DNA of 64,000 nucleotides from a virus (Duplodnaviria > Heunggongvirae > Uroviricota > Caudoviricetes): IMG/VR virus record IMGVR_UViG_3300027673_000001, positions 82,759 through 146,758 of that record, one strand, 5' to 3'. The notes beneath the pieces are model-generated. The model made no database searches. It was not told the DNA's origin and was given only the letters and a program-made list of their open reading frames with translations. Shown here in pieces: positions 34,511-50,452 of the stretch (position 1 is its first letter; each line of letters opens with the position of its first letter). The translations under genes were made by a program, and so were the position numbers.

Positions 34511-35772
34511 CAGAAAAAGTCCTCTAGGTCGGTTGGTTTGCCGCTTTGAACTCTCTTGCTTTTCACCCTTCTGGAGAAGTGTCCTAGCCAGATGTCAAAG
34601 TCGCCTTTGCTCTTCACATTATACAGAGCCTTCGCCGGATTGTAAAATTCAGCATCGATGGCTAGTTGAAGCATATTCTCTCTGCTCTCCATCATCCAGT
34701 CAACGTGCTCAATGTAGTTCATTATTGATTTGACAGTAAAGGCAGTCCTTGCCCTAAGGAAGTCAAAGTCCTCTCCACCCTGATCAATATACTTTGTGTA
34801 CCCTGTGTTCATAATCTTGTGGAACTTATGGGCATCAAGGCCAGCCATGTCGCATATTGTGCTGATGTCCTCAAATGTCGCTTCGTAGAACTTCGACATC
34901 TTTCTATCAAAAGCTACCTGTTTCCTGTTCTTGGTGTAGTAAAGCCCAAGCTCAACACCACTGGTGTGAGTTGTGCTATCGTATGACATAGTTAGAGATT
35001 CGTCATACAGACCAGATTGTTTGAATATCAAGTAGGGTAGCATCCTCTTGGCTGAGCCTACACCCAGGACGTGGAGATGTTTCTTTTCCATTTGCAGTTG
35101 GGAGAATATGAAAGCTCTTTCGATATCTTCCAACGTGCCTGTACCAAGAGCAGCAGCACCCATAGCCACTGCCGTAACCTCTCCCTTATCTTCATAGGGG
35201 ATTTGTTCAAGGACAATGTCAACCCACTTCATGTAAGTGTCATAACAGTTTCCTTGAGCGATAAGAATAGGCTTGCACTCGGACTTTTGCTCTCTATAGA
35301 CGTGAATCTGCCTGGCGATGTTCTTCCCGGTGAGCTTGGCGTAATGTTCCATCTCGTCGGGTTTGAACCAACGATTAGTCACATCGTTCCTGCCAGACGT
35401 CTTACCCTGAGTGCCGATTGGTATTTCATCAAAGCACATACCAAAGTCTGCAGAAGCGCATTGGTTCCTATAGATATCGTCCTTGATTTCGTCCGTTACA
35501 GCCTTGCCTTGAGTGATAATCTGAAGACCACCACTGTCAGCATGAATGCTATGGTACCCATCTAGTTTCCTAAACCTCGGACCAAAGGATTGCTCAGTGA
35601 ATCCATTGAATAACAAACCAAACTCATGGTTAGGCGAGGATTTTGCAATCTTCGACAGAAGTTCAGAGATGAATGGCCCATTAACGGGGTCACCGGCATT
35701 GCGTGGCGAATGAAGCCTCATGTAGCTAGTACCTGAGGCGATGTATTCTATTTTCTTATCCGAAGAAAGCAT
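34510..35772 (-). CDS. dpdA: DpdA / tRNA-guanine transglycosylase-family DNA transglycosylase
   Basis: 420 aa with TGT-family DSGG(F/L)Q motif (HADSGGLQII); sits in cluster with FolE/QueD/QueE. Confidence 0.6.
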   Translation of the reverse strand: MLSSDKKIEYIASGTSYMRLHSPRNAGDPVNGPFISELLSKIAKSSPNHEFGLLFNGFTEQSFGPRFRKLDGYHSIHADSGGLQIITQGKAVTDEIKDDIYRNQCASADFGMCFDEIPIGTQGKTSGRNDVTNRWFKPDEMEHYAKLTGKNIARQIHVYREQKSECKPILIAQGNCYDTYMKWVDIVLEQIPYEDKGEVTAVAMGAAALGTGTLEDIERAFIFSQLQMEKKHLHVLGVGSAKRMLPYLIFKQSGLYDESLTMSYDSTTHTSGVELGLYYTKNRKQVAFDRKMSKFYEATFEDISTICDMAGLDAHKFHKIMNTGYTKYIDQGGEDFDFLRARTAFTVKSIMNYIEHVDWMMESRENMLQLAIDAEFYNPAKALYNVKSKGDFDIWLGHFSRRVKSKRVQSGKPTDLEDFF

Positions 35773-37123
35773 CTAAGTTGTCCTCTTCTTCCTTTACTAC
35801 CATCTCTTCGGATTTGGTAAGGAAGGTTCTTGTTAGTGTTTGGAAATTGTTGAACTTCTTCCTGTTGCCATAGATTGATATCAAGTCCTCAGTAGATGCA
35901 AACCTACCCAGCGTCTTATCAATGAAAGCATCAACAAAGAAGTCGTCTTGCTCGTTGATTTTAGCGGAAGAAGAGTTGGACGTCAACCCATGGGGCTGTT
36001 CAATGAAGTCTCTCCACATCAGATCAGAAGCCGAGTCAAGAGACCTAACATATTTGATCCCCTTCTCCGTTCCTTCTTCTGAGTAGTGTAGGTTCCTCAA
36101 CCTAAGACCTACTTTAGAAGAACCAACCCTTTCAATGCTCAACAAATCTGTTTTGAAGTTGTAGACCCAGTCGTAATCCTCCACAACGCAATGGCAATGA
36201 CACAGGGCTTCCATCAGAGCAAAACCAAAGCTCTCGGACTTTGACGGCATATAGAATACCTTCGCCGATTTGATGAAGTTGACCTTATCTTCGCCTATGA
36301 TACTCTTCTTGATTACGAAGTTCTCGATGCCTTCTTTCTTGAACTCCTCTTCGAACTTCTTGGCTCCGTTCTCATTAGTCATGACCTTAGCCATTAGACC
36401 AGAGTCCTTGATTGCCTTCACAAACGCCTTGGGGTTTTTTCTTTCCTCCCATCTTCCGATGAACAGGCAACCTTCTTTCTTTAAACCGTCTGAGGAATCC
36501 AATAGACTTCTTTCAGGGATAGGCATTGGCAACCACGCTGTTCTAGTGAGACCTGCTTCCTTTAGCTCCGCATTGTTCCTGGAAGACTGAGTACCAACAA
36601 AGATACCTGGGAGTCTCATGAAGGACTCAATCATTGGATCATAGTTGTCATTGAACACACCCTTGAATGTGTTGTTTCTGAAAACCAAGTTCTCGTTGTG
36701 GGTATAAAAGACTATCTTGATGTAGTCCTGTATCCCCAAAGCATAGGTTGAGAAAAGGGCCTCGGGCGTATTGATTACCAGAGCGTCATACAAAGAAGAC
36801 TGCATTGCCTTCATTAGTGAATCTCTGAACTTCATCACTTTCTCAAAGTTCAGAGATTCACTGAAAGAATGAATCTTTTGGTGAGCCACAAAGTCGTTGG
36901 AAGGAGGGACTAAGCTCTTGAAGTTTACATTTGGGATAGACTTCAAGTAACCCACAAACTCAGAGGCGCCGGGCAAAGGTGGCGCATCCATGATTATGTC
37001 TACTACCCAATCCAACCTCCCAGCCATCTCAACAAACCCCTTGGCGAACTGTCCGATTCCGCCATGGGGTATGAGATGTTGAGAAGAGATCAGGAATCCG
37101 ATTCTCTTCTTAAAGACTTTCAT
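35756..37123 (-). CDS. GT-B (GT1/GT4 family) glycosyltransferase
   Basis: 455 aa; classic motif SESFGFALMEA (E-x7-E). Confidence 0.6.
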   Translation of the reverse strand: MKVFKKRIGFLISSQHLIPHGGIGQFAKGFVEMAGRLDWVVDIIMDAPPLPGASEFVGYLKSIPNVNFKSLVPPSNDFVAHQKIHSFSESLNFEKVMKFRDSLMKAMQSSLYDALVINTPEALFSTYALGIQDYIKIVFYTHNENLVFRNNTFKGVFNDNYDPMIESFMRLPGIFVGTQSSRNNAELKEAGLTRTAWLPMPIPERSLLDSSDGLKKEGCLFIGRWEERKNPKAFVKAIKDSGLMAKVMTNENGAKKFEEEFKKEGIENFVIKKSIIGEDKVNFIKSAKVFYMPSKSESFGFALMEALCHCHCVVEDYDWVYNFKTDLLSIERVGSSKVGLRLRNLHYSEEGTEKGIKYVRSLDSASDLMWRDFIEQPHGLTSNSSSAKINEQDDFFVDAFIDKTLGRFASTEDLISIYGNRKKFNNFQTLTRTFLTKSEEMVVKEEEDNLDAFFG

Positions 37124-37789
37124 TTAGCCTCGCACCAAGTCCATGAATTCCTTACGCAGGGCAGGATCATTCTTGAATCCACCACCAAGTTTGGAAGTGA
37201 TTGTATAGGAGGAAGTGTCCTCCACGCCACGTTGTGCTACGCAGTAATGCTTACCACGAACAACAATAGCGATGTTGTCTGTCTCAAGGATACACTCGAG
37301 GGCATAGAAGAGCTGCTCAGCATAGCGTTCCTGAATCTGGGGACGTTGTGCGAAGAACTTGGCGATACGGTTCAGCTTGCTTAGACCCAATACCTTGTGC
37401 TTGGGAATGTAGGCGATGGACACCTTCTGGTCGATGGTAACGAAGTGATGTTCGCAGGAACTGATTGCGATGATGTCCTTTTCGACAACCATCTCATCGT
37501 AGTTCATCTTGTTATCAACTGTCGTGCACTTGGGGAAGTTGGCGTAGTCAAGACCTTGGAAGATCTCATTGACGTACATCTTTGCTACACGCTTTGGTGT
37601 ATCGACCAGGGAGTCATCCTGCAGGTCGAGACCAAGTACTTCCATGATAGCCGTGAAGTAATTCTCGATATAGGAGATCTTATGATCCTTTGGCATATCG
37701 CTATAGGCGTTCTTGACTACAGGAGTCTCTACGCCCTTGGCGATCAGGTAGGCGTTTACTTTTTCTCCGAGCTTTGCATCTGTTTTCAT
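37124..37789 (-). CDS. folE: GTP cyclohydrolase I
   Basis: SSCEHHF and KHYCVAQRG motifs, 221 aa. Confidence 0.8.
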   Translation of the reverse strand: MKTDAKLGEKVNAYLIAKGVETPVVKNAYSDMPKDHKISYIENYFTAIMEVLGLDLQDDSLVDTPKRVAKMYVNEIFQGLDYANFPKCTTVDNKMNYDEMVVEKDIIAISSCEHHFVTIDQKVSIAYIPKHKVLGLSKLNRIAKFFAQRPQIQERYAEQLFYALECILETDNIAIVVRGKHYCVAQRGVEDTSSYTITSKLGGGFKNDPALRKEFMDLVRG

Positions 37790-37824: not shown

Positions 37825-38337
37825 TCAGTCAAAAAGGTTCTCGTTCCACTCACGATGACCTTCCCTGAATGCCATGTTTGCCTGAGTCTCGCGGACTTCA
37901 ACTTTGTAGCACCACAGGCGTTGTGCTTCTCCAGGACCCCACATATCAGGGATGTAGACTCCATTGACGTATTTGTAGAGCATATCAGCCAGGGACTCAC
38001 AACCCAGTCTAGGCAGGACAACAATCTTTGCCATACCCTTCTGCTCTAGAAGTTTGAATGTCTCCATCTCTGGGTCATCTTGTGCTACGATAAGAGTGTG
38101 ATCGAACTGAGATTCCAGGACCTTCTTCAGTTCCTTCAACCCGCCGTAGTCCGCCACCCAGTTGCGAACATCAAGGTCGTTCGTGCCGAAGTAGAACTTC
38201 ATGCTAAACGCATAACCATGGATAGTGTTGCAGTGGCTGTCCGCTCTCCACTGGCGATAGGCGCAGGGGAAGGCATCGACGTACTCCTTGGTACTGGTGT
38301 ATTTGTAAGTGATTGGTTGGTTCATTATGTATTCCAT
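37825..38337 (-). CDS. queD: 6-carboxy-5,6,7,8-tetrahydropterin synthase QueD
   Basis: CxxxHG(H/Y) motif HCNTIHGYAF; 170 aa. Confidence 0.65.
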   Translation of the reverse strand: MEYIMNQPITYKYTSTKEYVDAFPCAYRQWRADSHCNTIHGYAFSMKFYFGTNDLDVRNWVADYGGLKELKKVLESQFDHTLIVAQDDPEMETFKLLEQKGMAKIVVLPRLGCESLADMLYKYVNGVYIPDMWGPGEAQRLWCYKVEVRETQANMAFREGHREWNENLFD

Positions 38338-39194
38338 TCGTTACCGTAGATAATGCACTGGAGCCTAGGAGAGAACCTAAATCCATACTTCATTGCCAAG
38401 TCTGCCACCTTACGTTGGTTCTTGGCGTAAGCTTCGTTCGTCCCGCCTTCGGGCATCAGGTAAACACTGACGCGGTCAAAAGGTATGTTCTCATAACCAG
38501 TCATCATAACATCGATGACTTCAAGAACAGATTCCTCGTCGTCCACTACGAACTTCAGGTCAACTTCACCCACTTTCAGATAGCTCTCGATTGCTTCTGG
38601 CTTGATGGCGTCCTCGATGCTTTCCCCAGAAGCCATGAGCTTTGGAGAAACGCTAAAGTGCATGTTTGCTTTTGTCTTATCAAAAACGTTTTCTCCTAGA
38701 ATCTGAGTGCCGTTAGTCTCGACAGTGATATATAGACTCTCAGCCAAACCCCTATCGTGAATCTGGTCGATCAATTCAGAATATGCTTTTTGCCATCCAG
38801 GGAGTAGAGGTTCTCCGCCTGTCAGTATCAGATGAAAGTCACGACTGAATACCTTAACATCCAAGAGCTCTTCAATTTTGTCTGTGATCTCATATACAGA
38901 CATCATGGGGCTAAAGTCCTTGAACTCAGGATAGACCGCCGCGTAAGTGTCACACCCAGTATTAACCAAGGGAAGTTCAGTAAACTTCTTACCCCTGTAC
39001 TTTTCAATATCGTTGATGATTTGTTGAACTTCAGGGTTTGGACCGTCAAACTTTGTTCCGTGAGTCAAGCCAAAGGACTTGCACCGAAAGTTACAACCAA
39101 AGCTCCTGAGAAAGATAGAAGGCACTCCTGCGTACCTACCTTCGCCTTGAATTGAGGAGAACAGCTCCGAGACTTTAATCTTTGCCTTTGACAT
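38325..39194 (-). CDS. queE: 7-carboxy-7-deazaguanine synthase QueE (radical SAM)
   Basis: Cx3Cx2C-like cluster FLRSFGCNFRCKSFGLTHG near N-terminus; 289 aa. Confidence 0.65.
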   Translation of the reverse strand: MSKAKIKVSELFSSIQGEGRYAGVPSIFLRSFGCNFRCKSFGLTHGTKFDGPNPEVQQIINDIEKYRGKKFTELPLVNTGCDTYAAVYPEFKDFSPMMSVYEITDKIEELLDVKVFSRDFHLILTGGEPLLPGWQKAYSELIDQIHDRGLAESLYITVETNGTQILGENVFDKTKANMHFSVSPKLMASGESIEDAIKPEAIESYLKVGEVDLKFVVDDEESVLEVIDVMMTGYENIPFDRVSVYLMPEGGTNEAYAKNQRKVADLAMKYGFRFSPRLQCIIYGNEWNT

Positions 39195-39301
39195 AGGGCT
39201 CCTTGTCTAAAAATATGTCTATGTGAGTATTATATAGGTTCATTTGCATTTCGTCTATTCATGGTTGAAGTCCCCGAAGGGACTTGAACTGTATTGAGTG
39301 C

Positions 39302-39514
39302 TTAGACCCAATAAGTTTCGCCGAAGTGTTGGTTATATTGTTTCTCAAAAGCTTCGGAGAACTCCTCCACTGCTTGACGGGTAACAACCAAACGCTCGTT
39401 CATTCGGTGGAACTTCTTATAGGCAAACTCCGGTCCGCCGATCAGTTCGTTTTCGCTATCGTAAATGCCCTTGAGTTGTTGGAGCTCGGCGGGGTTGAAT
39501 TTGTATTCGATCAT
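39302..39514 (-). CDS. hypothetical protein
   Basis: 70-aa ORF. Confidence 0.35.
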   Translation of the reverse strand: MIEYKFNPAELQQLKGIYDSENELIGGPEFAYKKFHRMNERLVVTRQAVEEFSEAFEKQYNQHFGETYWV

Positions 39515-39537
39515 CTTCGTTTCCTTTTGGTTAGTGC

Positions 39538-40434
39538 TTACTTGCAGGTCAGGTACTCGGCGTGCTCTGCCCAGGTGCCATCTTCGTCAGCTGCCCGAAC
39601 TTTTGCTACGGTGATCAGGGTGCGGAGGTTAACTTCGCTCATCTTCTCCTTGTTGTTGTCAATGAACTTCAGGGCGTCCTTCTTGATCGACATATCGAAC
39701 ATGGGCAGGAACTCATCTTCTTTGATCATAACCGCCATGCGGTCAACCACTTCCTGCAGAGTCATCGACAGGTCGATCACTGCGCTACGGCTACGGATAG
39801 CCTGGTCAATCTTGTCTTCGCTCATGTTGGAGATGAACACCACGCGACCAGTAAAGATAAACGAGCGAGGCAGATCTTCGTCACGCATATCTGCGTTCCA
39901 GGAAATAATGCGAGTGTCATAGGAATCCAGGGCGCCTTTGAGCAAGTTCAGTGCAACGGGATCCTTCAGAACGCTGTCGCAGTCGTCGAACACAATCACA
40001 GTATCGTTGTTCTCGAACAGGGTGCGATACAGACCCTTGGCAGTGCTGTAGCCCTTAACGATCACGAAGCTACGGGCCCGACGGATGTTAGAGCCTTCTT
40101 CGCTCTCTGCTACGATAGTGGAAATGTCCTTCAGACCACTTTCAATGAGTGCCTTCTTCACGGAGAAGGACTTGCCAAGACCGCCACTGCCAGAAACTAC
40201 AGCGGAAGCCTGGAGACCTTTGGCGACCATCTTGACAGTCTTGTTCAGGAACTCGAAGCGCTTGTTGACATGGAAGCGGTTCTCCGTCTTTTCGATGGAC
40301 ACTGCAGCCTTACCAACAGTCTTTGCGAAGAAGTTTTCTGCGTGCATCTTCAGGTTTGCGCGCTTGACCATCTCGCCATTGATGTAAACTTCAAAACGCT
40401 TACCTGCTGCATATACACCGTGTTTCATCTTCAA
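39538..40434 (-). CDS. P-loop AAA-type ATPase
   Basis: Walker A GSGGLGKS, Walker B VIVFDDCD; antisense 306-aa + ORF rejected. Confidence 0.55.
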   Translation of the reverse strand: MKMKHGVYAAGKRFEVYINGEMVKRANLKMHAENFFAKTVGKAAVSIEKTENRFHVNKRFEFLNKTVKMVAKGLQASAVVSGSGGLGKSFSVKKALIESGLKDISTIVAESEEGSNIRRARSFVIVKGYSTAKGLYRTLFENNDTVIVFDDCDSVLKDPVALNLLKGALDSYDTRIISWNADMRDEDLPRSFIFTGRVVFISNMSEDKIDQAIRSRSAVIDLSMTLQEVVDRMAVMIKEDEFLPMFDMSIKKDALKFIDNNKEKMSEVNLRTLITVAKVRAADEDGTWAEHAEYLTCK

Positions 40435-40464
40435 CTCCTGTTTAACTTGTTTCGCTATGTTTCT

Positions 40465-40493
40465 ATTATAGCACAGTCTTGAATAAAATTCAA
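40465..40493 (-). promoter_or_regulatory. consensus early promoter TTGAAT-N17-TATAAT
   Basis: ctattatagcacagtcttgaataaaattcaa. Confidence 0.6.
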
Positions 40494-40582
40494 ACTTTGT
40501 TGCGCCCTAAAAGTGCTTAAATTTCAGGCATTTAGGGAGTTTCAAACACAGAAAACAAGTGTAACAGAAGCCAGATTAAATG

Positions 40583-40996
40583 TCAAGGGTGAAGAACCTC
40601 TCCAGCAAAGACCTGGAATCGGTCACGCATCTCTTGCATTTTATTCTCAGGTACGTTATGAATGCTACCAAAGTGGCTAGTCATCCTGAAGACCTTCAAG
40701 GCGTGGTTGTTTTCCCGACAATAGTCAACATATGGTTTCATTTCCTTGAAAGTGGTAAAGGTATTAGAAACCACAACCAACTTACCAGCATCAAGGGATT
40801 CCGTAACACTGACGAAGCACTTGGAGTGAGCATAGTGAAGCCTCGAGGCTAGAAACTCATACTCACCTTTATCGTTTACCATGAACTGGTCAGCCTCAAA
40901 GTGAGCAGAATTTTCAACATCACGGAGAATATGCTTCGCTAAGGTAGACTTGCCGGACCCAGGCAACCCCCTGATAATGATAAGACCTTTTTCCAT
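40583..40996 (-). CDS. P-loop polynucleotide-kinase-like NTPase
   Basis: Walker A GLPGSGKSTLAK at N-terminus, 137 aa; resembles kinase module of Pnkp enzymes. Confidence 0.5.
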   Translation of the reverse strand: MEKGLIIIRGLPGSGKSTLAKHILRDVENSAHFEADQFMVNDKGEYEFLASRLHYAHSKCFVSVTESLDAGKLVVVSNTFTTFKEMKPYVDYCRENNHALKVFRMTSHFGSIHNVPENKMQEMRDRFQVFAGEVLHP

Positions 40997-41964
40997 TAAA
41001 ATCCCTTAATCTTTCTGTACTGAACCCAACCCTTGAGGTTTCCACTCCACAGATTTCCTTCCATATCCACATGGGAGACTCCCTTCTCGAAAGCCTCGTG
41101 GAGGTAGAATCTTGGATTCTCCATGGGGGTTGCCTGATGCTCTGTAGGGGAAGCATGGGCTTGTCTGTTTCCTGGAGTAAGATTCAGCATATCGAAAATC
41201 TTTTGTGCTTTCTCAACGCTAGTATCGTTCTTTCGATAGGATACCTGAGCGCAACAGCTAACGGAAATCTTCATTGCTTCATCTAGCGTGACTTCGATGC
41301 CCTCTGACCAATATTTACCTTCGCGCCTTTCGACGTAGGGCAAGTGCCATTCCCCGGGTGCGAGATGTTGAGGAGTAGAATGATGCCTAGCATCCCTGAC
41401 GCACTTCGCAAGCTCATGAATTTCTGGTTGCGCATCGTCATGATCCCTGAGCCAAAGGAAGTTGTCCCACTCAGTGCCACTCACAACAGAACGAACCATC
41501 ATGAATGGCTCAGTAACCCGGTTCACTACCTGCTTATGATTACCAAGTTCTGCCAGGGCCTTTGCGGAATCAATTGCGTTTGACGCAGCCAAACCCCATG
41601 CAATCTGAGATTTTAGGATTTCATCCTGCCCCAGCTCTTCAACGGCAGTCATCCCAGGTTTGTTCTTACCCCAATAAACAGGAACAGCCATGTTTTCAAG
41701 TATCTGCTTGTGCATGGCTTCAACAGGGATAGCACGGCTAGAGGCTGTGTTCTTGCTCAACATCCTATGTGTATTGAGTTCCGCAAGGATAAACCTCGGG
41801 TACTCAAGCTCCATAGTTACCATCCTATTGCCAATATCGTTTATGGAGTCAGCCACAACCCTAGCACTGATTCCGTTCTTACCTACAACCTTAACTGATT
41901 TCATGTCAATCTCCGTGATGTTTGAGGACTTCTTTGTTGCGAAGTTCTCGATGTATTTCTTCAA
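40996..41964 (-). CDS. thyX: flavin-dependent thymidylate synthase ThyX
   Basis: ThyX motif RHR-x7-S: THRMLSKNTASSRA. Confidence 0.7.
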   Translation of the reverse strand: MKKYIENFATKKSSNITEIDMKSVKVVGKNGISARVVADSINDIGNRMVTMELEYPRFILAELNTHRMLSKNTASSRAIPVEAMHKQILENMAVPVYWGKNKPGMTAVEELGQDEILKSQIAWGLAASNAIDSAKALAELGNHKQVVNRVTEPFMMVRSVVSGTEWDNFLWLRDHDDAQPEIHELAKCVRDARHHSTPQHLAPGEWHLPYVERREGKYWSEGIEVTLDEAMKISVSCCAQVSYRKNDTSVEKAQKIFDMLNLTPGNRQAHASPTEHQATPMENPRFYLHEAFEKGVSHVDMEGNLWSGNLKGWVQYRKIKGF

Positions 41965-42463
41965 AGGACCAGGGAGCCATATCCGCCGGACAGCGAGTAT
42001 CTATACCTACATCCATGGAGCGACCATGTGGTTTCGTCATAAGTCCCCCATGAACGTGCCCAAAAAGGTGGTATGAGCCATCATGCATATGCTGCCACTC
42101 CCTCATTGGATAATGGAACAGAACAATGGCGATCTTATCCACGCTGATTTTCTTGTAGTCCTGAACAGTGACGAACATGGACTGAATGGATTTGTCTCCT
42201 CGGATCACTTTATCGTGGTTGCCAAGGATTAGGTGTTTCTGTCCGTTCAACCTACGAACGATGCTCTTGGTTTCCTCGGCATTACCAAAGCTAAAGTCTC
42301 CTAGGAAGTAGACTGTGTCGTTTTGGCGAACTCGATTGTTGTGGGCCTCGATCATGAGCTCATTCATATGTAGAACGGTTTCCCCAAACCTAGTGTTGGG
42401 ACAGAACTTCTGAATGTTCTTATGATAGAAGTGGTTGTCTGATGTGAAAAATACGTTGTTCAT
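41906..42463 (-). CDS. calcineurin-like metallophosphoesterase
   Basis: SDNHFYH, GDFSFGN, GNHD motifs. Confidence 0.65.
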   Translation of the reverse strand: MNNVFFTSDNHFYHKNIQKFCPNTRFGETVLHMNELMIEAHNNRVRQNDTVYFLGDFSFGNAEETKSIVRRLNGQKHLILGNHDKVIRGDKSIQSMFVTVQDYKKISVDKIAIVLFHYPMREWQHMHDGSYHLFGHVHGGLMTKPHGRSMDVGIDTRCPADMAPWSFEEIHRELRNKEVLKHHGD

Positions 42464-42464
42464 T

Positions 42465-43373
42465 TTACTTTGTAGGTCCGTTTTCCTCGAACCACCTTTC
42501 TATGTATTCTCTTCGAGCCATTTCATCAAGCTCAAAGAACCTTTCGCGCTCTACTTCCTGTATCCAATGATGCAAGCCATAGAACTCCTCGTCAATAGAT
42601 TCCTTATCGAATCTGAGGAACTTTTCCCAGTTGCCCCTCATGAAGAACTTCTTAGTCAAGTAATGAGGAGACTTTATCTTTGTCCATTGCTCATCGTTAG
42701 TACAGAGAACGAACCCCTCATGCTTACAGTTCTTGACTATTTCCTTCAAGTGACCAAACCTGTAATATTGAGCGTCTACAATCAAAACAGGTGTACCATG
42801 CCATATCATCTTCTCGACTGATGTGTTGGCAAGTTCTGCTTCACGATTGAAGTCGTGCAAACGGTAACCTATAAAATGCAGGCCTTCAGGCTCTTCGATG
42901 ATATGTGGGTCTTTCTTGTGGACACACTCAAACATGAATGTTCCCCCTGCCCCCTCCTCGACAATGCACTTGAAGGTAGTCTTTTGAGATTCGCTCCAGC
43001 TTTCAAATATCTCCTTGGCGTACCCAATAAAGTCAGAATCCAAAGATCCTGTGGTGCTCCAAAGTAGGTCATCTTTATACCAAGTACAGGCTATCATAAA
43101 GCCGTTCACTTTTCTCGAGGCAAACACGAGCTCGTCGTCCTTAATGAAAGGCGCGTCTTCTTCTATGCCATAGTTGTGGATTTTCTTAAATGGCAGGGAA
43201 ACTATGTTCCAGTCACTATCAACCACAAGCCCCCGACATTCCCTCAGGAAATCATTCCAAAGAGATTTGAAGAAGACAGATCGCCTGTACTTCATGACAA
43301 AGAGGTCTGGGTTGGAAGTTTCCTTCCTCACTACCAAATCTTTGTTTGCTTCATAAAGGGATTCGATGTTCAT
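42465..43373 (-). CDS. RNA ligase-like nucleotidyltransferase
   Basis: Lysine motif I KVNG (KxNG), 302 aa, adjacent to kinase and phosphoesterase. Confidence 0.45.
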   Translation of the reverse strand: MNIESLYEANKDLVVRKETSNPDLFVMKYRRSVFFKSLWNDFLRECRGLVVDSDWNIVSLPFKKIHNYGIEEDAPFIKDDELVFASRKVNGFMIACTWYKDDLLWSTTGSLDSDFIGYAKEIFESWSESQKTTFKCIVEEGAGGTFMFECVHKKDPHIIEEPEGLHFIGYRLHDFNREAELANTSVEKMIWHGTPVLIVDAQYYRFGHLKEIVKNCKHEGFVLCTNDEQWTKIKSPHYLTKKFFMRGNWEKFLRFDKESIDEEFYGLHHWIQEVERERFFELDEMARREYIERWFEENGPTK

Positions 43374-43804
43374 AGCATATCCATCATATCACCAGGGTCT
43401 CCTCGAAGCTTCAGGATTTCTGCATCCATACCTTCTTCAAAGAGTGTCCAATTTTCATAAATGCAGTCTGCAGCACCGTTTCGTTTCAGCTTCTCAGACA
43501 CAATGAAAGCCACAAATGCCGAGGAGATTCGCCGTCCTTCTTCTTCGCTCTGCAGGAGACCACCTTCGGCTGAGTAAGCAGTGATAGCCAGAAGAAGAAT
43601 TTGACACGCCGCTTCAACGTCCGATTCAAATGCCTCCGCCAGAGTGATGACTTCATTAAGATCATCATCGCTCATTTTGCTAATGTACTCGCCGGGTGAG
43701 AAGTACTCCTGCTCCTTGATGGTTGATATCATGTCTCTTAGTACACTAGAGCACGGTCCCTGGAGTACGCTATCGTAGTTTACGGTGTAGGCTTCGAAGT
43801 TCAT
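43370..43804 (-). CDS. hypothetical acidic protein
   Basis: 144-aa ORF. Confidence 0.4.
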   Translation of the reverse strand: MNFEAYTVNYDSVLQGPCSSVLRDMISTIKEQEYFSPGEYISKMSDDDLNEVITLAEAFESDVEAACQILLLAITAYSAEGGLLQSEEEGRRISSAFVAFIVSEKLKRNGAADCIYENWTLFEEGMDAEILKLRGDPGDMMDML

Positions 43805-43989
43805 TTTGATTGCTCTTTCTTCTCCAAGGAGAGTTCATATTTGGCGAGTTTTGCCATGTATAGAAAAGTTTTAGGGAACTGTTCAAAGTCGGGTATTCTG
43901 TCCCCGAACATCGTTTCCATCTTTTGGAGTATAGATTCCTCAATCAACCCAGACGTCTGAGTGGATTTGCTTGTGTTTTCGCTTTTCAT
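43801..43989 (-). CDS. hypothetical protein
   Basis: 62-aa ORF. Confidence 0.3.
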   Translation of the reverse strand: MKSENTSKSTQTSGLIEESILQKMETMFGDRIPDFEQFPKTFLYMAKLAKYELSLEKKEQSK

Positions 43990-44101
43990 TCTTTCGCTTG
44001 TCTTTGTGTTTACCCGCCTTGCGTTTGATTGCCAACACCACTAGGAAGTTTCTTTCCTTGAGGTTTTTTACTTTGATTTCAAATCCTTGCTTCTTGGACA
44101 T
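43940..44101 (-). CDS. small basic protein
   Basis: Internal ATG (44101); Lys/Arg-rich; overlaps previous ORF in different frame. Confidence 0.3.
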   Translation of the reverse strand: MSKKQGFEIKVKNLKERNFLVVLAIKRKAGKHKDKRKNEKRKHKQIHSDVWVD

Positions 44102-44161
44102 TCTAAGCCTCGCTGGCAACATAAATAAGATGTACACAAAGTCTAACAGGAAAAGGAATAA

Positions 44162-44365
44162 ATGTCAAGGTTCGTCGTCCTCAAAGGTTCTGAACTCATC
44201 ATCTCTGAAACCATAGAAGAACTCCCAGACGACTTTGATCACCTTATAGAGTTTGCTCCAGACTACCCAGAAGGTCCTCATACTCATGAGCAACATGAGG
44301 AGATGGAGTCATGGAACGACAAACTTCAAAAACTTTTGGAGAAGGAACGTGCCCGCAGTCACTAG
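44162..44365 (+). CDS. hypothetical acidic protein
   Basis: 67-aa + strand ORF in a 3-gene + island. Confidence 0.4.
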   Translation: MSRFVVLKGSELIISETIEELPDDFDHLIEFAPDYPEGPHTHEQHEEMESWNDKLQKLLEKERARSH

Positions 44366-44639
44366 AATAGGCGATGCCGACGTTCCCCATTGTTCAGGTA
44401 TGGTTAGGGCTCAAGGAAGCCCCGACGTTTTTGCCAATAACATACCGATCTCCAGACAGTCGGACTTAAACACCACTCACTTACTTCCTGGTGTTCCGTG
44501 CCCGCCTCATGCAGCGCCGATTACGACAGGAAGCTCAACGGTTTTTATAAATGGGCTAGGTTGTGGGAGAATTGGAGATGCCATCACTGGTTGCACATCG
44601 GTGGCAGCCGGTTCCCATAACGTGTTCGCAGGGGGTTAA
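44286..44639 (+). CDS. PAAR-repeat protein (gp5.4-like spike tip)
   Basis: PAAR-domain pattern RIGDADVPHCSG ... PCPPHAAPITTGSSTVFINGLGCGRIGDAITGC; start uncertain (44286 overlapping upstream ORF or ATG at 44400). Confidence 0.55.
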   Translation: MSNMRRWSHGTTNFKNFWRRNVPAVTRIGDADVPHCSGMVRAQGSPDVFANNIPISRQSDLNTTHLLPGVPCPPHAAPITTGSSTVFINGLGCGRIGDAITGCTSVAAGSHNVFAGG

Positions 44640-44978
44640 ATGGAAATGGCAGGTATATTGGGTCTTGCTTCTGGGCTTCCGGGAGCCTTCAGCGTGGTCT
44701 TCTCTTTTACAGCTCTGGCTGTTTCTACATGGCTGTACTTCAAAAGAGTAGGTCTAGAGAAGGAGAAAACTGAGAGTTCGGTGCATGACCTTCAAATCAA
44801 ATCATTGATAGAACAGATAGAGCTTTTGTCTACTGAGCTTTCCAGCGCCAGAATACAAATATCTGTCATCCACACGCAAAACTTGGAGCTCATGGCTCAA
44901 TTAAGAACCGCGAACTCCAAGATTAACGAATTGGAGAGCATCCTCTCCAAATCATCAGACAGCTCAAAGAGTCTTTAA
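44640..44978 (+). CDS. type-II membrane protein with coiled coil (i-spanin-like?)
   Basis: N-terminal TM (ILGLASGLPGAFSVVFSFTALAV) followed by heptad-rich region. Confidence 0.4.
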   Translation: MEMAGILGLASGLPGAFSVVFSFTALAVSTWLYFKRVGLEKEKTESSVHDLQIKSLIEQIELLSTELSSARIQISVIHTQNLELMAQLRTANSKINELESILSKSSDSSKSL

Positions 44979-45440
44979 GCGATCCGCACAGATAGAAGCT
45001 GCCCAGGAGTTTGGCTTAACCACAGGGTCAAGACCACAAACCCCCTTGATGTATCCAACAGCTTCACCAAGGGCGCAGGAGCTTCCATGGATTTCCAAGG
45101 GGTTGATATCCAAGTGAAGCTCAACGTGTCGCTTCTCGAGATCGACAGCTTCGGACACCTTCAAGTACAGTTCGGCGATTTTCATCACCTCTGTCATCAA
45201 ACGCATCTTTGGTCGATCTAGGTTGCGATCATAGTCTCGCTCCCTTTGTACCTCACCGAACACTTTTGCTCCGTGCTTTCCGTCTATATGGACAGCCACG
45301 ATAAGCAAGTAGTCGACCATCCAAACCCCATCAACATTCACACGCTCGGAGTCCGCACCAAAGTAAATCTTTGTTTCCGCAGATTGTGATTCGATGTATG
45401 ACTTCAGTGTTTCGATGTCGATGGTGATTTGCCGTGCCAT
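44964..45440 (-). CDS. hypothetical protein
   Basis: 158-aa ORF. Confidence 0.4.
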   Translation of the reverse strand: MARQITIDIETLKSYIESQSAETKIYFGADSERVNVDGVWMVDYLLIVAVHIDGKHGAKVFGEVQRERDYDRNLDRPKMRLMTEVMKIAELYLKVSEAVDLEKRHVELHLDINPLEIHGSSCALGEAVGYIKGVCGLDPVVKPNSWAASICADRLKTL

Positions 45441-45449
45441 GGTTTTTCC

Positions 45450-45698
45450 TTAGATGTATTCTTGGTAGAGTTTGGTGATGACGCCGTGGTCCATTTTCCA
45501 CATCACCTTGGGTTTTGCGCCTTCTTTATAGGCTTCCAGTGCCGAGTTCAGGCGGTCAGTGAACTCGATGCAAACGCCCAGGCTTTCTACTTTGTAGATG
45601 GGCTGGCGTTGCTTTTGTACGGGTTTGTCAAACACCGCACGATTCTGTACCTCCACGACTTTGCGTTTGTGGGGGCGAGGGGTATAGTTGATTGCCAT
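45450..45698 (-). CDS. hypothetical protein
   Basis: Start at MAINYTP (45698) with AAGGAG RBS. Confidence 0.4.
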   Translation of the reverse strand: MAINYTPRPHKRKVVEVQNRAVFDKPVQKQRQPIYKVESLGVCIEFTDRLNSALEAYKEGAKPKVMWKMDHGVITKLYQEYI

Positions 45699-46902: not shown

Positions 46903-47690
46903 GTCAAAACCTCTTTGATACCTGAGAACTTTGTTTCACTATGGAGCGATAGAACCTCAGGGTAATGATCTATCGCCCAATCTCTAAACCACCCAGAGCA
47001 AAGAGTGGTGCATACCTTATCGAGGGACTTCATGAATGCCATCTTGGAAGGGTACTTCCAATCTTTAGGCACCATGAATCTCTCGATTGCAATTGTGTAG
47101 GCCTCCTCTGCCACACAAAAGTTCTTCTCTTCAACTGTGAACTTTTCCCACTTTTCTTTCGAGCAGAATACCTGTTCACCGTCCTCTAACATTCTAACAT
47201 ACATTGGCTTTTCCGTAAAGGCGACCAAGGTATGAATATAGTCATGGTCAAAGACCTTAACCACTGCATCATCGAAGAACTCGTCCTTGGACTTCTTCAG
47301 ACTGATAATGTGTTGACTGAACTCCCTTCTTGAGAGTTCCATCCTAACATCGAGAAAATCCTTGTCTTTTTCCGTAATCTCAATGGCGTGATGTTTCAAG
47401 AACTTGTGGTAGTGAGTGATATGCTTTTGGAACCCCAGATCTCTCCACAGATGGCTTCTCTTAATCAGAGCCAGACCCTTCATGGAAACTACCCTGAGCT
47501 CAGAACCATTAAACTTGATTACGTTGTCTGTTGCGAACTGCTCAATGTCTGCATTGTTTAGGAAGTCAAGCCTGTGGTGTTCTGTCCCTTCTATTGGGTG
47601 GGGAGATACAACATCCCAATCAGCGTCTTTCTTAAGCGAAAAAGACGGATCGTGGTAGGCTATAGCCCTCGAGCCGATCAGTAGGTTCAT
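46899..47690 (-). CDS. hypothetical protein
   Basis: 263-aa ORF. Confidence 0.4.
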   Translation of the reverse strand: MNLLIGSRAIAYHDPSFSLKKDADWDVVSPHPIEGTEHHRLDFLNNADIEQFATDNVIKFNGSELRVVSMKGLALIKRSHLWRDLGFQKHITHYHKFLKHHAIEITEKDKDFLDVRMELSRREFSQHIISLKKSKDEFFDDAVVKVFDHDYIHTLVAFTEKPMYVRMLEDGEQVFCSKEKWEKFTVEEKNFCVAEEAYTIAIERFMVPKDWKYPSKMAFMKSLDKVCTTLCSGWFRDWAIDHYPEVLSLHSETKFSGIKEVLT

Positions 47691-48469
47691 ACATCAAACG
47701 TCTTCAGTTTGAAGGGGAAGGCTTCAGTGTAGGTTTCATTTGGGTAACCCTTGGGATTCGCCAAAACTCTAGTTTCACACACCATGTAATCCACTGGCTC
47801 GTGCATATGCCCATGAACCCAAACTTTGATGTTGGGGTTATAGCACATGAAGTCCGACAGGTCCGAGGCATAACCCCCGTTCATCTCAAAGTCGTCCTGG
47901 AACTTAGCAGGCACAGATCGAAAAGATGGAGCGTGATGAGTCATCACAACCATGGGTTTGCCTTTCTCGGCTTCCTTCTTCAGGGCCTCGAGAGTGATTG
48001 AGTGTCTGTTCTTTGTGTCCACGGGACGAAGCTTGCGGTAGATGTTGACAACCTTGTCATCGTATGTGATGGCTTGGTAGTCATTCATGTACTGCCCAAC
48101 GGACCAGTTGGTCAACGGGCAGCCCTTGTTGAGGTTGGTCCACAAAGTCCCACCAAACAAGGTAACGTCGCCCAAGTCAACAACCTCATCATTGAGGAAT
48201 GTGATTCCGTGCTTGGCGTATTCTTCTTTCAGTTTTGGCAACGTCTTGTTGAAGTAGCCACCATAGAATTCATGATTACCTGCGACTGCGTAGATGCGAG
48301 GAAATTTGCTTGCCAGATCAGCCAAGAAACCCTGATAGTGGTCCTTGTGCATCTTGTCGCCAATTAGGATGTCGCCAGCGAGAAGTAGAACGTCTGCTTC
48401 TACATCATTCACCAAACGAGTAGAGTGATTGAACTCCATATGGAGATCACTGGCAAAGGCGATTTTCAT
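47687..48469 (-). CDS. calcineurin-like metallophosphoesterase
   Basis: DLHMEF, AGDILIGD, GNHEFY, HHAP motifs. Confidence 0.6.
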   Translation of the reverse strand: MKIAFASDLHMEFNHSTRLVNDVEADVLLLAGDILIGDKMHKDHYQGFLADLASKFPRIYAVAGNHEFYGGYFNKTLPKLKEEYAKHGITFLNDEVVDLGDVTLFGGTLWTNLNKGCPLTNWSVGQYMNDYQAITYDDKVVNIYRKLRPVDTKNRHSITLEALKKEAEKGKPMVVMTHHAPSFRSVPAKFQDDFEMNGGYASDLSDFMCYNPNIKVWVHGHMHEPVDYMVCETRVLANPKGYPNETYTEAFPFKLKTFDV

Positions 48470-48867: not shown

Positions 48868-48896
48868 ATTGTAGCACGAAGTTGAATAAATTTCAA
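48868..48896 (-). promoter_or_regulatory. sigma70-like early promoter TTGAAA-N17-TACAAT
   Basis: ccttattgtagcacgaagttgaataaatttcaag. Confidence 0.55.
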
Positions 48897-49525
48897 GAGT
48901 TTTCTCGAACCCAGTCTTCTCTGCTGTAAGTGTAATCCCCGAAAGTCTTTTGGAACAAGGAAGGGTCGTTGAAGCACGCCACAACAAAGTCCCTGACAGG
49001 AACAAAGTCCTCGGGCTTCTTGACCTCGAATGGAGCAACCAGGGAAACGCCTCGGCAGTAACCATACTGCTTAACAGTCATGGAGCAGGTCTGGACGTAG
49101 TCACCTTCTCGTTTCAGACGTTCCTCTTCTTCTTTCCATTTGTCAAAGAATGTACGGTCGTTGTCTTCGAACTTGGATTCCCATGCCACAATTTTCTTTC
49201 TCTTCTTGTTCTTGCCTAGGTACTTGTAGACAGGAACGGAGTTGGCGAAAATATCGTCTTCGTCTTTTCTTTCGTTCTTGAAGGAGTTGTAAGCGATGTC
49301 GCTATTTTTGTCCGAGTACTCAAGCCTTGGATGAACCAACCAAACAACCACTTGGTGGGAGCCGTGCATAAAAGCAACATCATCCCACCAAGTGTATTCC
49401 CTCTCGTCATCATAAACGTGATAGATCTTTAGACCTAGCTTATGATTCCAACGGCTATCGTTCTTTGCTTTCTTGGCGTAACGCTTACTTTTCTCGATGA
49501 GGGCTTCGATGTAGCGATTCTTCAT
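48893..49525 (-). CDS. hypothetical protein
   Basis: 210-aa ORF. Confidence 0.4.
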   Translation of the reverse strand: MKNRYIEALIEKSKRYAKKAKNDSRWNHKLGLKIYHVYDDEREYTWWDDVAFMHGSHQVVVWLVHPRLEYSDKNSDIAYNSFKNERKDEDDIFANSVPVYKYLGKNKKRKKIVAWESKFEDNDRTFFDKWKEEEERLKREGDYVQTCSMTVKQYGYCRGVSLVAPFEVKKPEDFVPVRDFVVACFNDPSLFQKTFGDYTYSREDWVRENS

Positions 49526-50286
49526 ATGTCACCTTCGTGCAGTTCCCTGAACTTTCTTTTGGCTTCTGACAACATGAAAACCTTTTCGTTGTCATTGGAC
49601 CAGTCTTCCTCGAGAGGCTTGAAGTTGATACTGTGGGGTTCGTTCTCGTCGTAGGCCCAGCCCAGAGTCTTCATCATTTTGTGTTTGACCAAAAGATTTG
49701 GGCTCCGAAAAACCTCAGTATCCTGAAAACCAAGCATAACGCCTATCTCAGCCACTGCGCCACTTCGGCAAATGCCTGCGTGACAGTGAACAATGACATT
49801 GGTGTTTTTCTCCAATGCTTTCTGAAGCAGCCCAACCAAAGTGTCGGCGTCTTTCTGAGTGACAGCAAAGCCAGACATGTCGATCATTGTTCCAGACCCG
49901 TCGTTGGTCATCCCATCTTTTTCTATGTCCAGAAATTTGAACTGATGAACTTCCCTGAAATCCTTTAGAGGTTGAGGGAATTCCATGTCGGGGTCAACGA
50001 TTTGGATGAGCATCGAGTTGGGACCTGCATCAAAGTGCAAACCTCTTTTGATATCACTCAATGCTACGTTCTGAATCCAAGGCATGATATACTTTCGTTT
50101 TATGGCGGGGCGTAATCGAATCGAACGATCACCGGTATCAGCGATGGCACGGTGTTCAAGGCCGTTTTGCCTCCAAGGCGCTACACCCCAAAATCTTTGC
50201 TGGTTACGTCTTGTCCAGCTTCCAGGGAAGGGTATGACCCCCAGAACGTCTACACACTCAATCACATACCATAGATGTCTTTCCAT
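49522..50286 (-). CDS. dual-specificity/tyrosine protein phosphatase (CX5R)
   Basis: Active-site signature VHCHAGICRSGAV (HCxxGxxRS). Confidence 0.65.
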   Translation of the reverse strand: MERHLWYVIECVDVLGVIPFPGSWTRRNQQRFWGVAPWRQNGLEHRAIADTGDRSIRLRPAIKRKYIMPWIQNVALSDIKRGLHFDAGPNSMLIQIVDPDMEFPQPLKDFREVHQFKFLDIEKDGMTNDGSGTMIDMSGFAVTQKDADTLVGLLQKALEKNTNVIVHCHAGICRSGAVAEIGVMLGFQDTEVFRSPNLLVKHKMMKTLGWAYDENEPHSINFKPLEEDWSNDNEKVFMLSEAKRKFRELHEGDI

Positions 50287-50295: not shown

Positions 50296-50370
50296 TGGTA
50301 GCGGAGTCCTGGAATCGAACCAGGGACCTGGAGCTTATGAGACTCCCGAGATACCACTTCTCCAACCCGC
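50296..50370 (-). tRNA. tRNA-Met/Ile2 (anticodon CAT)
   Basis: Hand-folded cloverleaf; T-arm GGTTCGATTCC, anticodon loop CTCATAA, 3' CCA encoded. Confidence 0.55.
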
Positions 50371-50376
50371 AACATT

Positions 50377-50452
50377 TGGCGCGCCCAGAAGGATTCAAAC
50401 CTCCGACCCACTGCTTAGGACGCAGCTGCTCTATTCACTGAGCTATGGACGC
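50377..50452 (-). tRNA. tRNA-Arg (anticodon CCT by hand fold)
   Basis: Perfect acceptor GCGTCCA/TGGGCGC, D-arm GCTCAGTGAATAGAGC, loop GTCCTAA. Confidence 0.5.

Follow-up and report, generated by a model that had tools for sequence, protein, structure and literature searches.

The Pnkp and Rnl1 enzymes of phage T4 reverse the damage done by the anticodon nuclease PrrC, and this established phage precedent is one of counter-defence. Immune effectors that cleave tRNA are increasingly recognised, i.e. PrrC, RloC, HEPN RNases, Cas13a, retron and OLD-family systems, and among phage repair pathways only that of T4 has, to our knowledge, been examined experimentally so far. In phages of the rV5, phi92 and PAK_P1 type, comparative genomics has described a neighbourhood comprising a T4-like tRNA ligase, a nucleotide kinase and a calcineurin-like phosphoesterase, accompanied by cREC, SIR2 and MazG (PMC9503650; also PMC7824862, PMC12846349), and the ligase, kinase and phosphoesterase genes have been given the same RNA-repair reading as is proposed here (PMC9503650, PMC7824862).

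The locus studied here lies in a window of 64,000 nucleotides of viral DNA and represents this already known gene set, which has been noted previously and is present in hundreds of sequenced phages; the window adds another example, and the locus yields no new principle. As judged from sequence, it appears to exemplify a very common alternative, in which the HAD phosphatase of T4 is replaced by a separate metallophosphoesterase (MPE). The ligase, the MPE and the kinase probably constitute an RNA heal-and-seal pathway made up of three proteins and encoded by a large uncultured phage, and the set most likely mends cut tRNAs. Direct support comes from folds, catalytic motifs, conserved linkage and domain fusions.

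Gene content and packing of the locus

The block consists of the following genes:

42465–43373, minus strand: Rnl1-type RNA ligase, 302 aa, containing SRKVNGFM
41906–42463, minus strand: metallophosphoesterase (MPE), 185 aa, with SDNHF, GDFSFGN, GNHD and GHVHG
40996–41964, minus strand: ThyX, start probably the ATG at 41904 (phrog_85, 1.4e-89; Pfam Thy1, 2.2e-7)
40583–40996, minus strand: P-loop kinase, 137 aa, with GLPGSGKST

The ligase-like, MPE, ThyX and kinase ORFs described in the earlier note were confirmed at these positions on the minus strand, and the ligase, MPE and kinase are indeed separate ORFs, all three inside 2.8 kb. The profile matches of the four ORFs are well past chance level. 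Upstream, orf144 overlaps the ligase ORF by 4 nt, the spacing between ligase and MPE is 1 nt, the JGI call of ThyX (302 aa) starts 2 nt past the MPE stop, and the kinase ATG overlaps the ThyX stop by 1 nt (TAATG). Such close packing suggests that the ligase-MPE-ThyX-kinase block is co-transcribed; a promoter and terminator scan of positions 39000–45500 gave no excess over shuffled expectation, so that we infer co-transcription from gene packing only.

The source phage is known from metagenomic contigs only, the longest being about 163 kb. Megablast of positions 40000–44000 against GenBank phages returned no match, nor did tblastn with a 462-aa ORF from another part of the window. Genes of the 7-deazaguanine pathway flank the block, and FolE, QueD and QueE genes are found in its neighbourhood. 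Three flanking ORFs (43370–43804, 43801–43989 and 39538–40434) gave no match to cREC or SIR2. Four ORFs have no homologues in 83 related loci and were rejected as module members: orf144 and orf62, both upstream of the ligase, the AAA protein (39538–40434) and orf210 (48893–49525).

Ligase, metallophosphoesterase and kinase

The 302-aa protein is supported as a short Rnl1-type ATP-dependent RNA ligase, i.e. a covalent nucleotidyltransferase. The Pfam search proposed in the earlier note returned no match for it at an E-value of ≤0.01, whereas the T4 Rnl1-type family phrog_562 was matched at 2e-45. The score against TIGR02308 was 19 bits with a cut-off of 242, and many homologues at 43–65% identity carry Pfam PF09511 (RNA_lig_T4_1). 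As the protein falls below curated thresholds, yet has PF09511 in its homologues and the phrog_562 match, we class it on profile grounds as a divergent Rnl1 subfamily and not as an equivalog.

Single-sequence phmmer against PDB gave no match, and T4 Rnl1 (2c5u) was reached only via the family profile, at 1e-11 with the motifs aligned. In this alignment, the covalent lysine that had been predicted in the 302-aa ORF is K88 of KVNG (motif I), equivalent to T4 K99, and K88, N90 and G91 are invariant among 45 homologues. Also invariant in these homologues are E149 (T4 E159, motif III), E219-G220 (E227-G228, motif IV), K232 and K234 (K240 and K242, motif V), R47 (R54) and K64 (K75). Of the T4 residues, R54, K75 and K119 are reportedly Rnl1-specific and essential in mutagenesis by the Shuman laboratory; K119 aligns with an invariant Thr (T108) in the window protein.

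The predicted structure (AF2, pLDDT 92.6) has the nucleotidyltransferase fold, and its top three Foldseek matches are T4 Rnl1 entries (E-values 1e-12 to 8e-12, TM 0.67–0.71), Rnl1 being followed in rank by fungal Trl1-LIG, Rnl3, Rnl5 and Rnl2. The ligase domain of Pnkp, including that of Clostridium thermocellum Pnkp (CthPnkp), is absent among the best 50 structural matches. After motif V, about 65 residues (236–302) form four helices with pLDDT of 73–86. This helical C-terminal region is about half the T4 length, and the profile alignment to T4 ends at residue 243; in T4 Rnl1, the C-terminal helical domain of about 120 aa confers tRNA specificity.

The 185-aa ORF is supported, by its motifs and nearest relative, as a predicted dinuclear metallophosphoesterase of the aq_1665 clade. 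It matched Pfam Metallophos at 2.3e-4, with a score of 22.1 just over the gathering score of 21.5, and phrog_547 at 5e-53. The motifs DxH, GD, GNH(D/E), H, GH and GHxH supply the metal ligands and the catalytic His, and D9, H11, D56, N82, H83, H117, H136 and H138, metal ligands included, are invariant in 40 homologues. Its sole PDB relative is 1XM7 (Aquifex aq_1665), found at 3e-21 with the profile and at 1.3e-13 with the single sequence; no CthPnkp or lambda phosphatase chain was recovered from PDB by either query at E-values up to 10. The NCBIfam PdeM model was matched weakly (5e-4), far under its cut-off. The family comprises 16,117 cluster representatives at E≤1e-10, a size that suggests roles outside phage RNA repair as well. 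We propose that the MPE is the enzyme of 3′-end healing, i.e. an RNA 2′,3′-cyclic phosphodiesterase and 3′-phosphatase, a chemistry that the MPE domains of CthPnkp and lambda phosphatase carry out (PMC2190708, PMC3675462).

The 137-aa ORF is supported as a stand-alone, polynucleotide-kinase-like P-loop kinase and is a proposed 5′-OH RNA kinase. Besides Pfam AAA_33 (4.4e-8; this search and that with Metallophos, both suggested earlier, thus gave matches), it matched phrog_2071 (1e-31) and phrog_505, named ‘polynucleotide kinase’ (6e-9). The P-loop spans G10–T18, D36 aligns with the general base D35 of T4 Pnk, and R126, in the C-terminal helix, is near-invariant. The ORF consists of the kinase domain alone and has no phosphatase domain, including HAD (DxDxT).

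Conceivably, the kinase and the MPE serve nucleotide metabolism as a dNMP or NMP kinase and a nucleotidase, together with ThyX and FolE/QueD/QueE, the proximity of the ligase being incidental. The kinase gene directly follows ThyX, the 7-deazaguanine genes flank the block, and PHROG names the kinase family just ‘ATPase’. The nearest relatives, according to the sequence profile and two structure searches, are nevertheless polynucleotide and tRNA kinases rather than dNMP kinases, and we consider this explanation most improbable. ThyX itself had been placed by the earlier note at the centre of the repair set, which was not borne out: it follows the kinase in three relatives (L004, L005 and L008) and the remaining related loci that were searched lack it. 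It is an inserted nucleotide-metabolism gene between MPE and kinase, outside the repair set, and acts in dTMP synthesis.

Linkage across phages, additional phosphohydrolases and the tRNA array

Unbiased clustering of neighbours around 43 dereplicated ligase loci shows that the ligase has no partner as constant as the MPE, which ranks ahead of either kinase family and of other phosphohydrolases. In 37 of the 43 loci the MPE gene shares the strand of the ligase gene and lies no more than 4 kb away, the distance being at most 1 kb in 33; often the two genes overlap. One of two AAA_33 kinase families is near the ligase in 31 loci, and all three genes occur together in 27. The two kinase families are distinct and fill one slot, being interchangeable within the module. 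A TROVE-like RNA-binding protein was found near the ligase in six of the 43 loci. Gene orders include MPE-LIG-KIN, LIG-MPE-KIN and PTP-KIN-MPE-HD-LIG, with a divergent arrangement in rV5, and this variability indicates that the linkage has been kept through rearrangements.

The rarity of a split set that had been implied earlier proved wrong, as homologues of the ligase and the kinase were present in 649 and 623 GenBank phage records, respectively, with nearly identical genus distribution and with annotations of the form ‘phosphoesterase / RNA ligase / ATPase’. Ligase and kinase genes are separated by 32–372 bp in ACP17, Boevelstad, JG005 and Csp-D17, the four GenBank records listing both positions. 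Moreover, contig P0504 encodes a fusion of an MPE of this clade with a kinase of this family, and the gene of an Rnl1-like ligase lies 1 kb away; the fusion is given low weight because it is seen in one contig and because the MPE and kinase genes overlap in many loci, so that a sequencing frameshift could mimic it.

Further features of the window bear on the module:

14574–15017, minus strand: HD-domain phosphohydrolase, 147 aa (phrog_990, 8e-59; Pfam HD_4, 7e-5, below gathering)
47687–48469: second MPE, 260 aa, with no PDB relative
49522–50286, minus strand: Cys-phosphatase (PTP/DSP-like), 254 aa, with HCHAGICRSG
50300–56165, minus strand: tRNA array, 32 tRNA genes (ARAGORN) with an embedded GOLLD RNA

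Two additional phosphohydrolase families, those of the Cys-phosphatase and the HD enzyme, travel with the module. The Cys-phosphatase matched phrog_5614 (1.8e-7) and, all under gathering, Pfam DSPc (6.8e-6), Tc-R-P (1.9e-5) and PTP-SAK (2.7e-3), and is 54% identical (3e-55) to the ORF immediately upstream of the ligase in the related locus L032. Members of its family are encoded no further than 4 kb from the ligase in 13 of the 43 dereplicated loci, and with a limit of 10 kb they are found in 39 of 83 loci. The protein is a candidate accessory enzyme of the module for end processing, whose gene has here been displaced from the ligase. The HD phosphohydrolase, another candidate accessory member, is here about 27 kb from the repair block; several loci have a phrog_990 gene between MPE and ligase, 12 of 43 have one no more than 4 kb from the ligase, and homologues at 73–78% identity are present in L007, L054, L061 and L071. 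The second MPE is a possible alternative phosphatase; before dereplication, 12 of 83 loci have a homologue of it at a distance of 1–4 kb from the ligase. A HAD protein at 10603–11127 was rejected as a repair member, being deoxyribonucleotidase-like (phrog_2643, 1.4e-26) and matching a ‘polynucleotide kinase’ PHROG weakly (9e-4).

With several more phosphohydrolases in the window and in related modules, RNA repair might involve only the ligase and the kinase, 3′ healing being left to the Cys-phosphatase, the HD enzyme, the HAD protein or the second MPE, and the MPE of the block being employed otherwise, e.g. in degradation of cyclic-nucleotide immune signals, as a protein phosphatase, or as a PdeM-like ligase-associated DNA-end nuclease. 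Its clade is uncharacterised, the weak PdeM match points in the last direction, and the number of cluster representatives suggests wider uses. Such a division of labour is decidedly unlikely, considering that the MPE adjoins the ligase with the constancy described above and is fused to the kinase in P0504, and that MPE domains of CthPnkp and lambda phosphatase do the chemistry in question (PMC2190708, PMC3675462).

For the three-protein pathway, we infer the substrates, the MPE chemistry, the sequence of steps and the role in counter-defence. The MPE, of aq_1665 type with two metal ions, would first open the cyclic phosphate and strip the resulting phosphate to leave a 2′,3′-diol, a job belonging to the HAD domain in T4 Pnkp and to a different MPE clade in CthPnkp. 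The 137-aa kinase would then move the gamma-phosphate of an NTP onto the 5′-OH with D36 as general base, and the Rnl1-type ligase would self-adenylylate at K88, transfer AMP to the 5′-phosphate and seal the nick. The Cys-phosphatase and the HD phosphohydrolase may process other end chemistries, e.g. 2′- or 3′-monophosphates; their families are often embedded in the module in relatives.

The tRNA island next to which the set was said to lie is real, with 32 ARAGORN calls instead of 30; Rfam placed 23 tRNAs above gathering in addition to GOLLD. ‘Next to’ is a loose description, as the distance from the start of the array is 6.9 kb to the ligase gene and 9.7 kb to the kinase gene, and about a dozen ORFs intervene; the Cys-phosphatase ends 14 nt short of the first tRNA. 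The 32 tRNAs are likely beneficiaries or substrates of repair and also a parallel escape from tRNA-targeting defences.

The array includes unusual tRNAs besides the embedded GOLLD RNA, and the set could instead serve the phage's own RNA biology, in maturation or splicing-like joining of array transcripts or in GOLLD processing, comparable to tRNA exon healing and sealing by fungal and plant Trl1. Fungal Trl1 ligase and kinase domains are among the structural neighbours of the ligase and kinase, the Cys-phosphatase abuts the array, and the phage protein FNU2_90 is encoded just ahead of a tRNA array. On the other side, no intron-containing tRNA has been demonstrated, and T4 Pnkp/Rnl1, the sole experimentally established phage precedent, acts in counter-defence. 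Furthermore, of the eight closest related loci, searched with Rfam up to 10 kb from the ligase, seven had no tRNA and none had GOLLD, and an association of GOLLD with the module was rejected. We therefore regard a role in the phage's own RNA biology as unlikely.

Returning to repair of cut tRNAs, a broader proposal is a real possibility, advanced tentatively: MPEs of the aq_1665 clade may be the dedicated RNA 3′-end healers (2′,3′-cyclic phosphodiesterase and phosphomonoesterase) for short Rnl1-type ligases in very many phages, i.e. the ‘missing phosphatase’ of stand-alone phage polynucleotide kinases, and together with the Cys-phosphatase and HD enzymes of the module they may form a toolkit for several types of RNA-end damage, conferring broad resistance to tRNA-cleaving defences.

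Comparison with known repair systems

A non-T4 architecture, as suggested in the earlier note, holds for the healing half of the system, and the sealing ligase is of the T4 Rnl1 type. Shared with T4 are the Rnl1 fold and motifs of the ligase, the kinase fold with its catalytic Asp aligned, and the logic of 3′ dephosphorylation, 5′ phosphorylation and sealing. Unlike T4 Pnkp, the window kinase is a stand-alone protein of 137 aa without a HAD domain, and 3′ healing is assigned to the separate MPE; compared with T4 Rnl1, the ligase is shorter by about 70 aa, its C-terminal domain is truncated, and a Thr occupies the position of K119.

The likeness to CthPnkp drawn in the same note did not stand, as the ligase is Rnl1-type, with the CthPnkp ligase outside the best 50 matches, and the MPE matches only 1XM7; with the MPE outside the CthPnkp clade, the non-T4 part is the healing half only. 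In contrast to bacterial Pnkp/Hen1 and the split Pnkp1-Rnl-Hen1 systems, the window has three polypeptides with ThyX between two of them, and its MPE is aq_1665-like and not lambda/PPP-like. Behind the T4 enzymes, fungal and plant Trl1 rank next as structural matches for both ligase and kinase domains, but Trl1 is one polypeptide that uses a 2H cyclic phosphodiesterase and leaves a 2′-phosphate; in the vicinity of the locus, neither a 2H nor a Tpt1/KptA gene was seen.

In Fusobacterium phage FNU2, gp90 (FNU2_90) likewise combines an AAA_33 kinase, Metallophos and RNA_lig_T4_1, as domains of one 738-aa protein, a layout shared by phrog_8238, and its gene precedes a tRNA array by about 0.9 kb. 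Kinase and MPE in this protein belong to the CthPnkp/PPP-like type, and thus only its ligase is closely comparable with the window protein.

Close counterparts are found in the phages of the rV5, phi92 and PAK_P1 type, which have the three protein families at 32–46% identity and an equal predicted role. Separate adjacent genes are likewise found in Klebsiella phage ZCKP1, Aeromonas phage 2L372X, Acidovorax phage ACP17 and rV5, homologues of all three being adjacent in ZCKP1, 2L372X and rV5_ev146. The window differs from them in having ThyX between MPE and kinase and in that cREC and SIR2 are not adjacent, and the genes for DNA ligase, MazG, the HD enzyme and the Cys-phosphatase, which border the module in relatives, are spread across 40 kb here. 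The prediction is testable in culturable phages of the rV5, phi92, PAK_P1/JG004 and Klebsiella ZCKP1 types.

Probable RNA repair genes and their surroundings in the window

The repair block consists of four minus-strand ORFs, which were located where the earlier note had placed them, and their domain assignments were backed by profile matches.

Genes of the proposed repair block
42465-43373 (-), ligase-like protein, 302 aa, containing RKVNG; phrog_562 (T4 Rnl1 PHROG), 2e-45
41906-42463 (-), metallophosphoesterase (MPE), 185 aa, with SDNHF, GDFSFGN, GNHD and GHVHG; Metallophos 2.3e-4, phrog_547 5e-53
40996-41964 (-), ThyX; phrog_85 1.4e-89
40583-40996 (-), P-loop kinase, 137 aa, with GLPGSGKST; AAA_33 4.4e-8, phrog_2071 1e-31

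Among the PHROG profiles, the kinase additionally matched phrog_505, “polynucleotide kinase” (6e-9). The block is tightly packed: a 144-aa ORF upstream of the ligase shares 4 nt with the ligase start, a single base lies between ligase and MPE, the JGI gene call starts ThyX 2 nt past the MPE stop, and the ThyX stop and kinase start overlap in TAATG. ThyX neighbours the ligase-kinase pair only in L004, L005 and L008, the three closest related loci having ThyX, where it follows the kinase; together with a dCMP deaminase (57922-58344) it represents ordinary dTMP synthesis. Nucleotide metabolism as the role of the MPE and kinase is a poorly supported rival explanation. The flanking orf144, orf62 and AAA protein, when checked against related loci, were not conserved partners of the module.

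Other genes near the block
35756-37123, glycosyltransferase
37124-37789 (-), FolE-like GTP cyclohydrolase
37825-38337 (-), QueD-like
38325-39194 (-), QueE-like
44253-44639 (+), PAAR-motif protein; phrog_281 1.3e-23
44964-45440 (-), RNaseH-like PF04308 protein, 6.5e-16

The FolE/QueD/QueE-like genes, which follow just downstream of the block after two intervening ORFs (39302-39514; AAA protein, 39538-40434), suggest 7-deazaguanine modification of phage DNA. The PAAR-motif gene, on the opposite strand, and the RNaseH-like gene lie just upstream.

In total, 32 tRNA genes were identified by ARAGORN at 50300-56165. The tRNA island is thus present, but “next to” the repair genes was a generous description, as the nearest tRNA lies 6.9 kb from the ligase. 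Maturation of the phage's own RNAs is a rival explanation for the repair enzymes. The array includes a full-length GOLLD RNA (54134-54596, minus strand; Rfam RF02032, 216.3 bits, gathering score 150, E 7.8e-60, covering model positions 1-416 of 416), with tRNA-Asn(GTT) (54461-54532) nested inside its variable linker. In the eight closest loci, no GOLLD RNA was found within 10 kb of the ligase, and therefore no link between GOLLD and the repair genes is evident. At 51984-52071 (-), ARAGORN calls an 88-nt “tRNA-?(Leu|Ile)(aa)” that is class-II-like and has six bases (ctaata) in its anticodon loop; Rfam gives no match to it at the gathering threshold, and the gene may be degenerate or may carry a variant of the loop. 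The tRNA-Gln(TTG) at 53355-53443 (-; Rfam 46.8 bits over 53358-53443) is, at 89 nt, unusually long for a Gln tRNA, possibly through an insertion or a long variable arm.

Ligase and metallophosphoesterase

As a single sequence, the ligase matched nothing in Pfam or PDB. Homologues numbered 1,284 at E<=1e-5, and many among the best 120 of these carry PF09511 RNA_lig_T4_1. A profile of 45 homologues recovered T4 Rnl1 at 1e-11, aligning K88 with the T4 adenylylation lysine K99, and R47, K64, E149, E219-G220 and K232/K234 with T4 R54, K75, E159, E227-G228 and K240/K242, respectively; all these ligase residues are invariant across the family. The AlphaFold model was confident (pLDDT 92.6), and its best Foldseek matches were three T4 Rnl1 entries (E ~1e-12, TM 0.67-0.71); next came the ligase domains of fungal Trl1 and archaeal Rnl3, and bacterial Pnkp ligase domains were absent from the top 50. 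The nucleotidyltransferase proposed in the earlier note is accordingly borne out by both the fold and the motif I lysine. Two departures from T4 Rnl1 were found: the position of T4 K119 is an invariant Thr in the window family, and only ~65 helical residues follow motif V, whereas T4 Rnl1 has a ~120-residue domain there, which confers tRNA preference. On this fold, these motifs and both departures, the protein is a short, divergent Rnl1-type RNA ligase.

The MPE retains every metal-binding or catalytic residue of the dinuclear superfamily: D9, H11, D56, N82, H83, H117, H136 and H138 do not vary among 40 homologues. The sole solved relative is the structural-genomics protein Aquifex aq_1665 (1XM7; profile 3e-21, single sequence 1.3e-13), with nothing else in PDB up to E 10, and likeness to the CthPnkp (Clostridium thermocellum Pnkp) and lambda phosphatase modules therefore appears, from sequence, to be at superfamily level only. 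With 16,117 cluster representatives at E<=1e-10 the clade is very large, and an MPE role unrelated to RNA repair is a further rival; the MPE domains of CthPnkp and lambda phosphatase hydrolyse 2',3'-cyclic phosphates (PMC2190708, PMC3675462). P0395, a 486-aa metagenomic member of the aq_1665-type family, has a ~300-aa insert directly after the conserved HGH motif, beginning with Cys and with Cys again following ...HITGN, which by sequence resembles an inserted intein or homing endonuclease. The window also encodes a second, longer MPE (47687-48469 (-), 260 aa; Pfam Metallophos 1.5e-19, phrog_1649) with no PDB sequence relative; 12 of the 83 related loci encode a homologue of it, at 1-4 kb downstream of the ligase.

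Linkage and fusion across phages

By tblastn, homologues of the ligase and kinase were found in 649 and 623 GenBank phage records, respectively, with almost identical genus distributions (Escherichia 199/198, Pseudomonas 177/173, Klebsiella 36/36, Acinetobacter 24/24, Campylobacter 23/23). Klebsiella phage ZCKP1 and Aeromonas phage 2L372X have the adjacent order phosphoesterase - RNA ligase - ATPase, and rV5 has its kinase and phosphoesterase genes divergent from a ligase-cREC-SIR2 operon.

For neighbour analysis, 80 IMG/VR loci around ligase homologues and three GenBank loci were dereplicated to 43 ligase clusters, and all same-strand ORFs within 4 kb of the ligase were clustered without prior labels.

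Gene families near the ligase (of 43 loci)
MPE, 37 (within 1 kb in 33)
Second AAA_33 kinase family, ~164 aa, 20
Cys-phosphatase, 13
HD_4 phosphohydrolase, 12
Window-type kinase, 11
TROVE-like RNA-binding protein, 6
ATP-dependent DNA ligase, 6
Either kinase, 31
Ligase, MPE and kinase together, 27

The ligase is accompanied more constantly by the MPE than by the kinase or any other family; the MPE lies upstream of it in 31 loci and, as in the window, downstream in 7. Gene order varied widely (e.g. Cys-phosphatase-kinase-MPE-HD-ligase, MPE-ligase-kinase, ligase-MPE-kinase), which argues that linkage has been maintained and not merely inherited. The Cys-phosphatase and HD families belong to an extended module; their window members are displaced from the ligase.

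Displaced module members and associated genes
49522-50286, Cys-phosphatase with HCx5R motif; 14 nt between its end and the first tRNA
14574-15017, HD protein; phrog_990
11124-11579, MazG, near the HD protein
11576-12880, DNA ligase, near the HD protein

The Cys-phosphatase is 54% identical to the ORF immediately upstream of the ligase in the related locus L032, and MazG and DNA ligase genes flank the repair module in relatives.

Maintained linkage is further supported by fusions. Fusobacterium phage FNU2 gp90 (738 aa), whose gene ends ~0.9 kb before a tRNA array, joins AAA_33, Metallophos and RNA_lig_T4_1, a layout shared by phrog_8238; its healing half is CthPnkp/PPP-like. In the metagenomic P0504, encoded 1 kb from an Rnl1-like ligase, the window MPE clade is fused to the window kinase family (A2 profile 1.8e-41), on a single contig where a frameshift artefact is possible. 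Locus L087 (Logan contig SRR22936137_29023, 3056-5987) contains an Rnl1-like ligase, one intervening gene and an apparent MPE-kinase fusion, among QueC, MazG, dNMP kinase and family-B DNA polymerase genes; its N-terminal MPE motif is apparently disrupted upstream of the called start.

Proposed pathway and known systems

A three-protein heal-and-seal pathway is the best-supported reading of the ligase, MPE and kinase, and a function in RNA end repair is likely. Folds, motifs, linkage and fusions are what the data show directly. By analogy with T4 Pnkp/Rnl1, CthPnkp and lambda phosphatase, the substrates would be RNA ends with a 2',3'-cyclic phosphate on one side of the break and a 5'-OH on the other; the MPE would yield a 3'-OH end (2',3'-diol), the kinase a 5'-phosphate, and the ligase would close the break through K88-AMP, presumably countering host defence. 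Anticodon-loop repair specifically is held with less confidence, tRNA specificity being less secure because the C-terminal domain of the ligase is truncated. The literature search turned up no biochemical or genetic experiment on these phage proteins.

The locus belongs to a phage neighbourhood already known from comparative genomics, i.e. the rV5-type T4-like ligase, nucleotide kinase and calcineurin-like phosphoesterase (PMC9503650); the contribution here is quantitative, in the constancy of the MPE and the two extra phosphohydrolase families. In some jumbo phages, calcineurin-like and HD phosphatases are stand-ins for HAD (PMC7824862), and in Pakpunavirus a PNK that “lacks 3'-phosphatase domain” adjoins an RNA ligase (PMC12846349). 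The window locus would function as the T4 pathway does, but the absence of an HAD domain sets it apart from T4 Pnkp. Nor is it a CthPnkp, because the set is split, the MPE is of a different clade and the ligase is of Rnl1 type.
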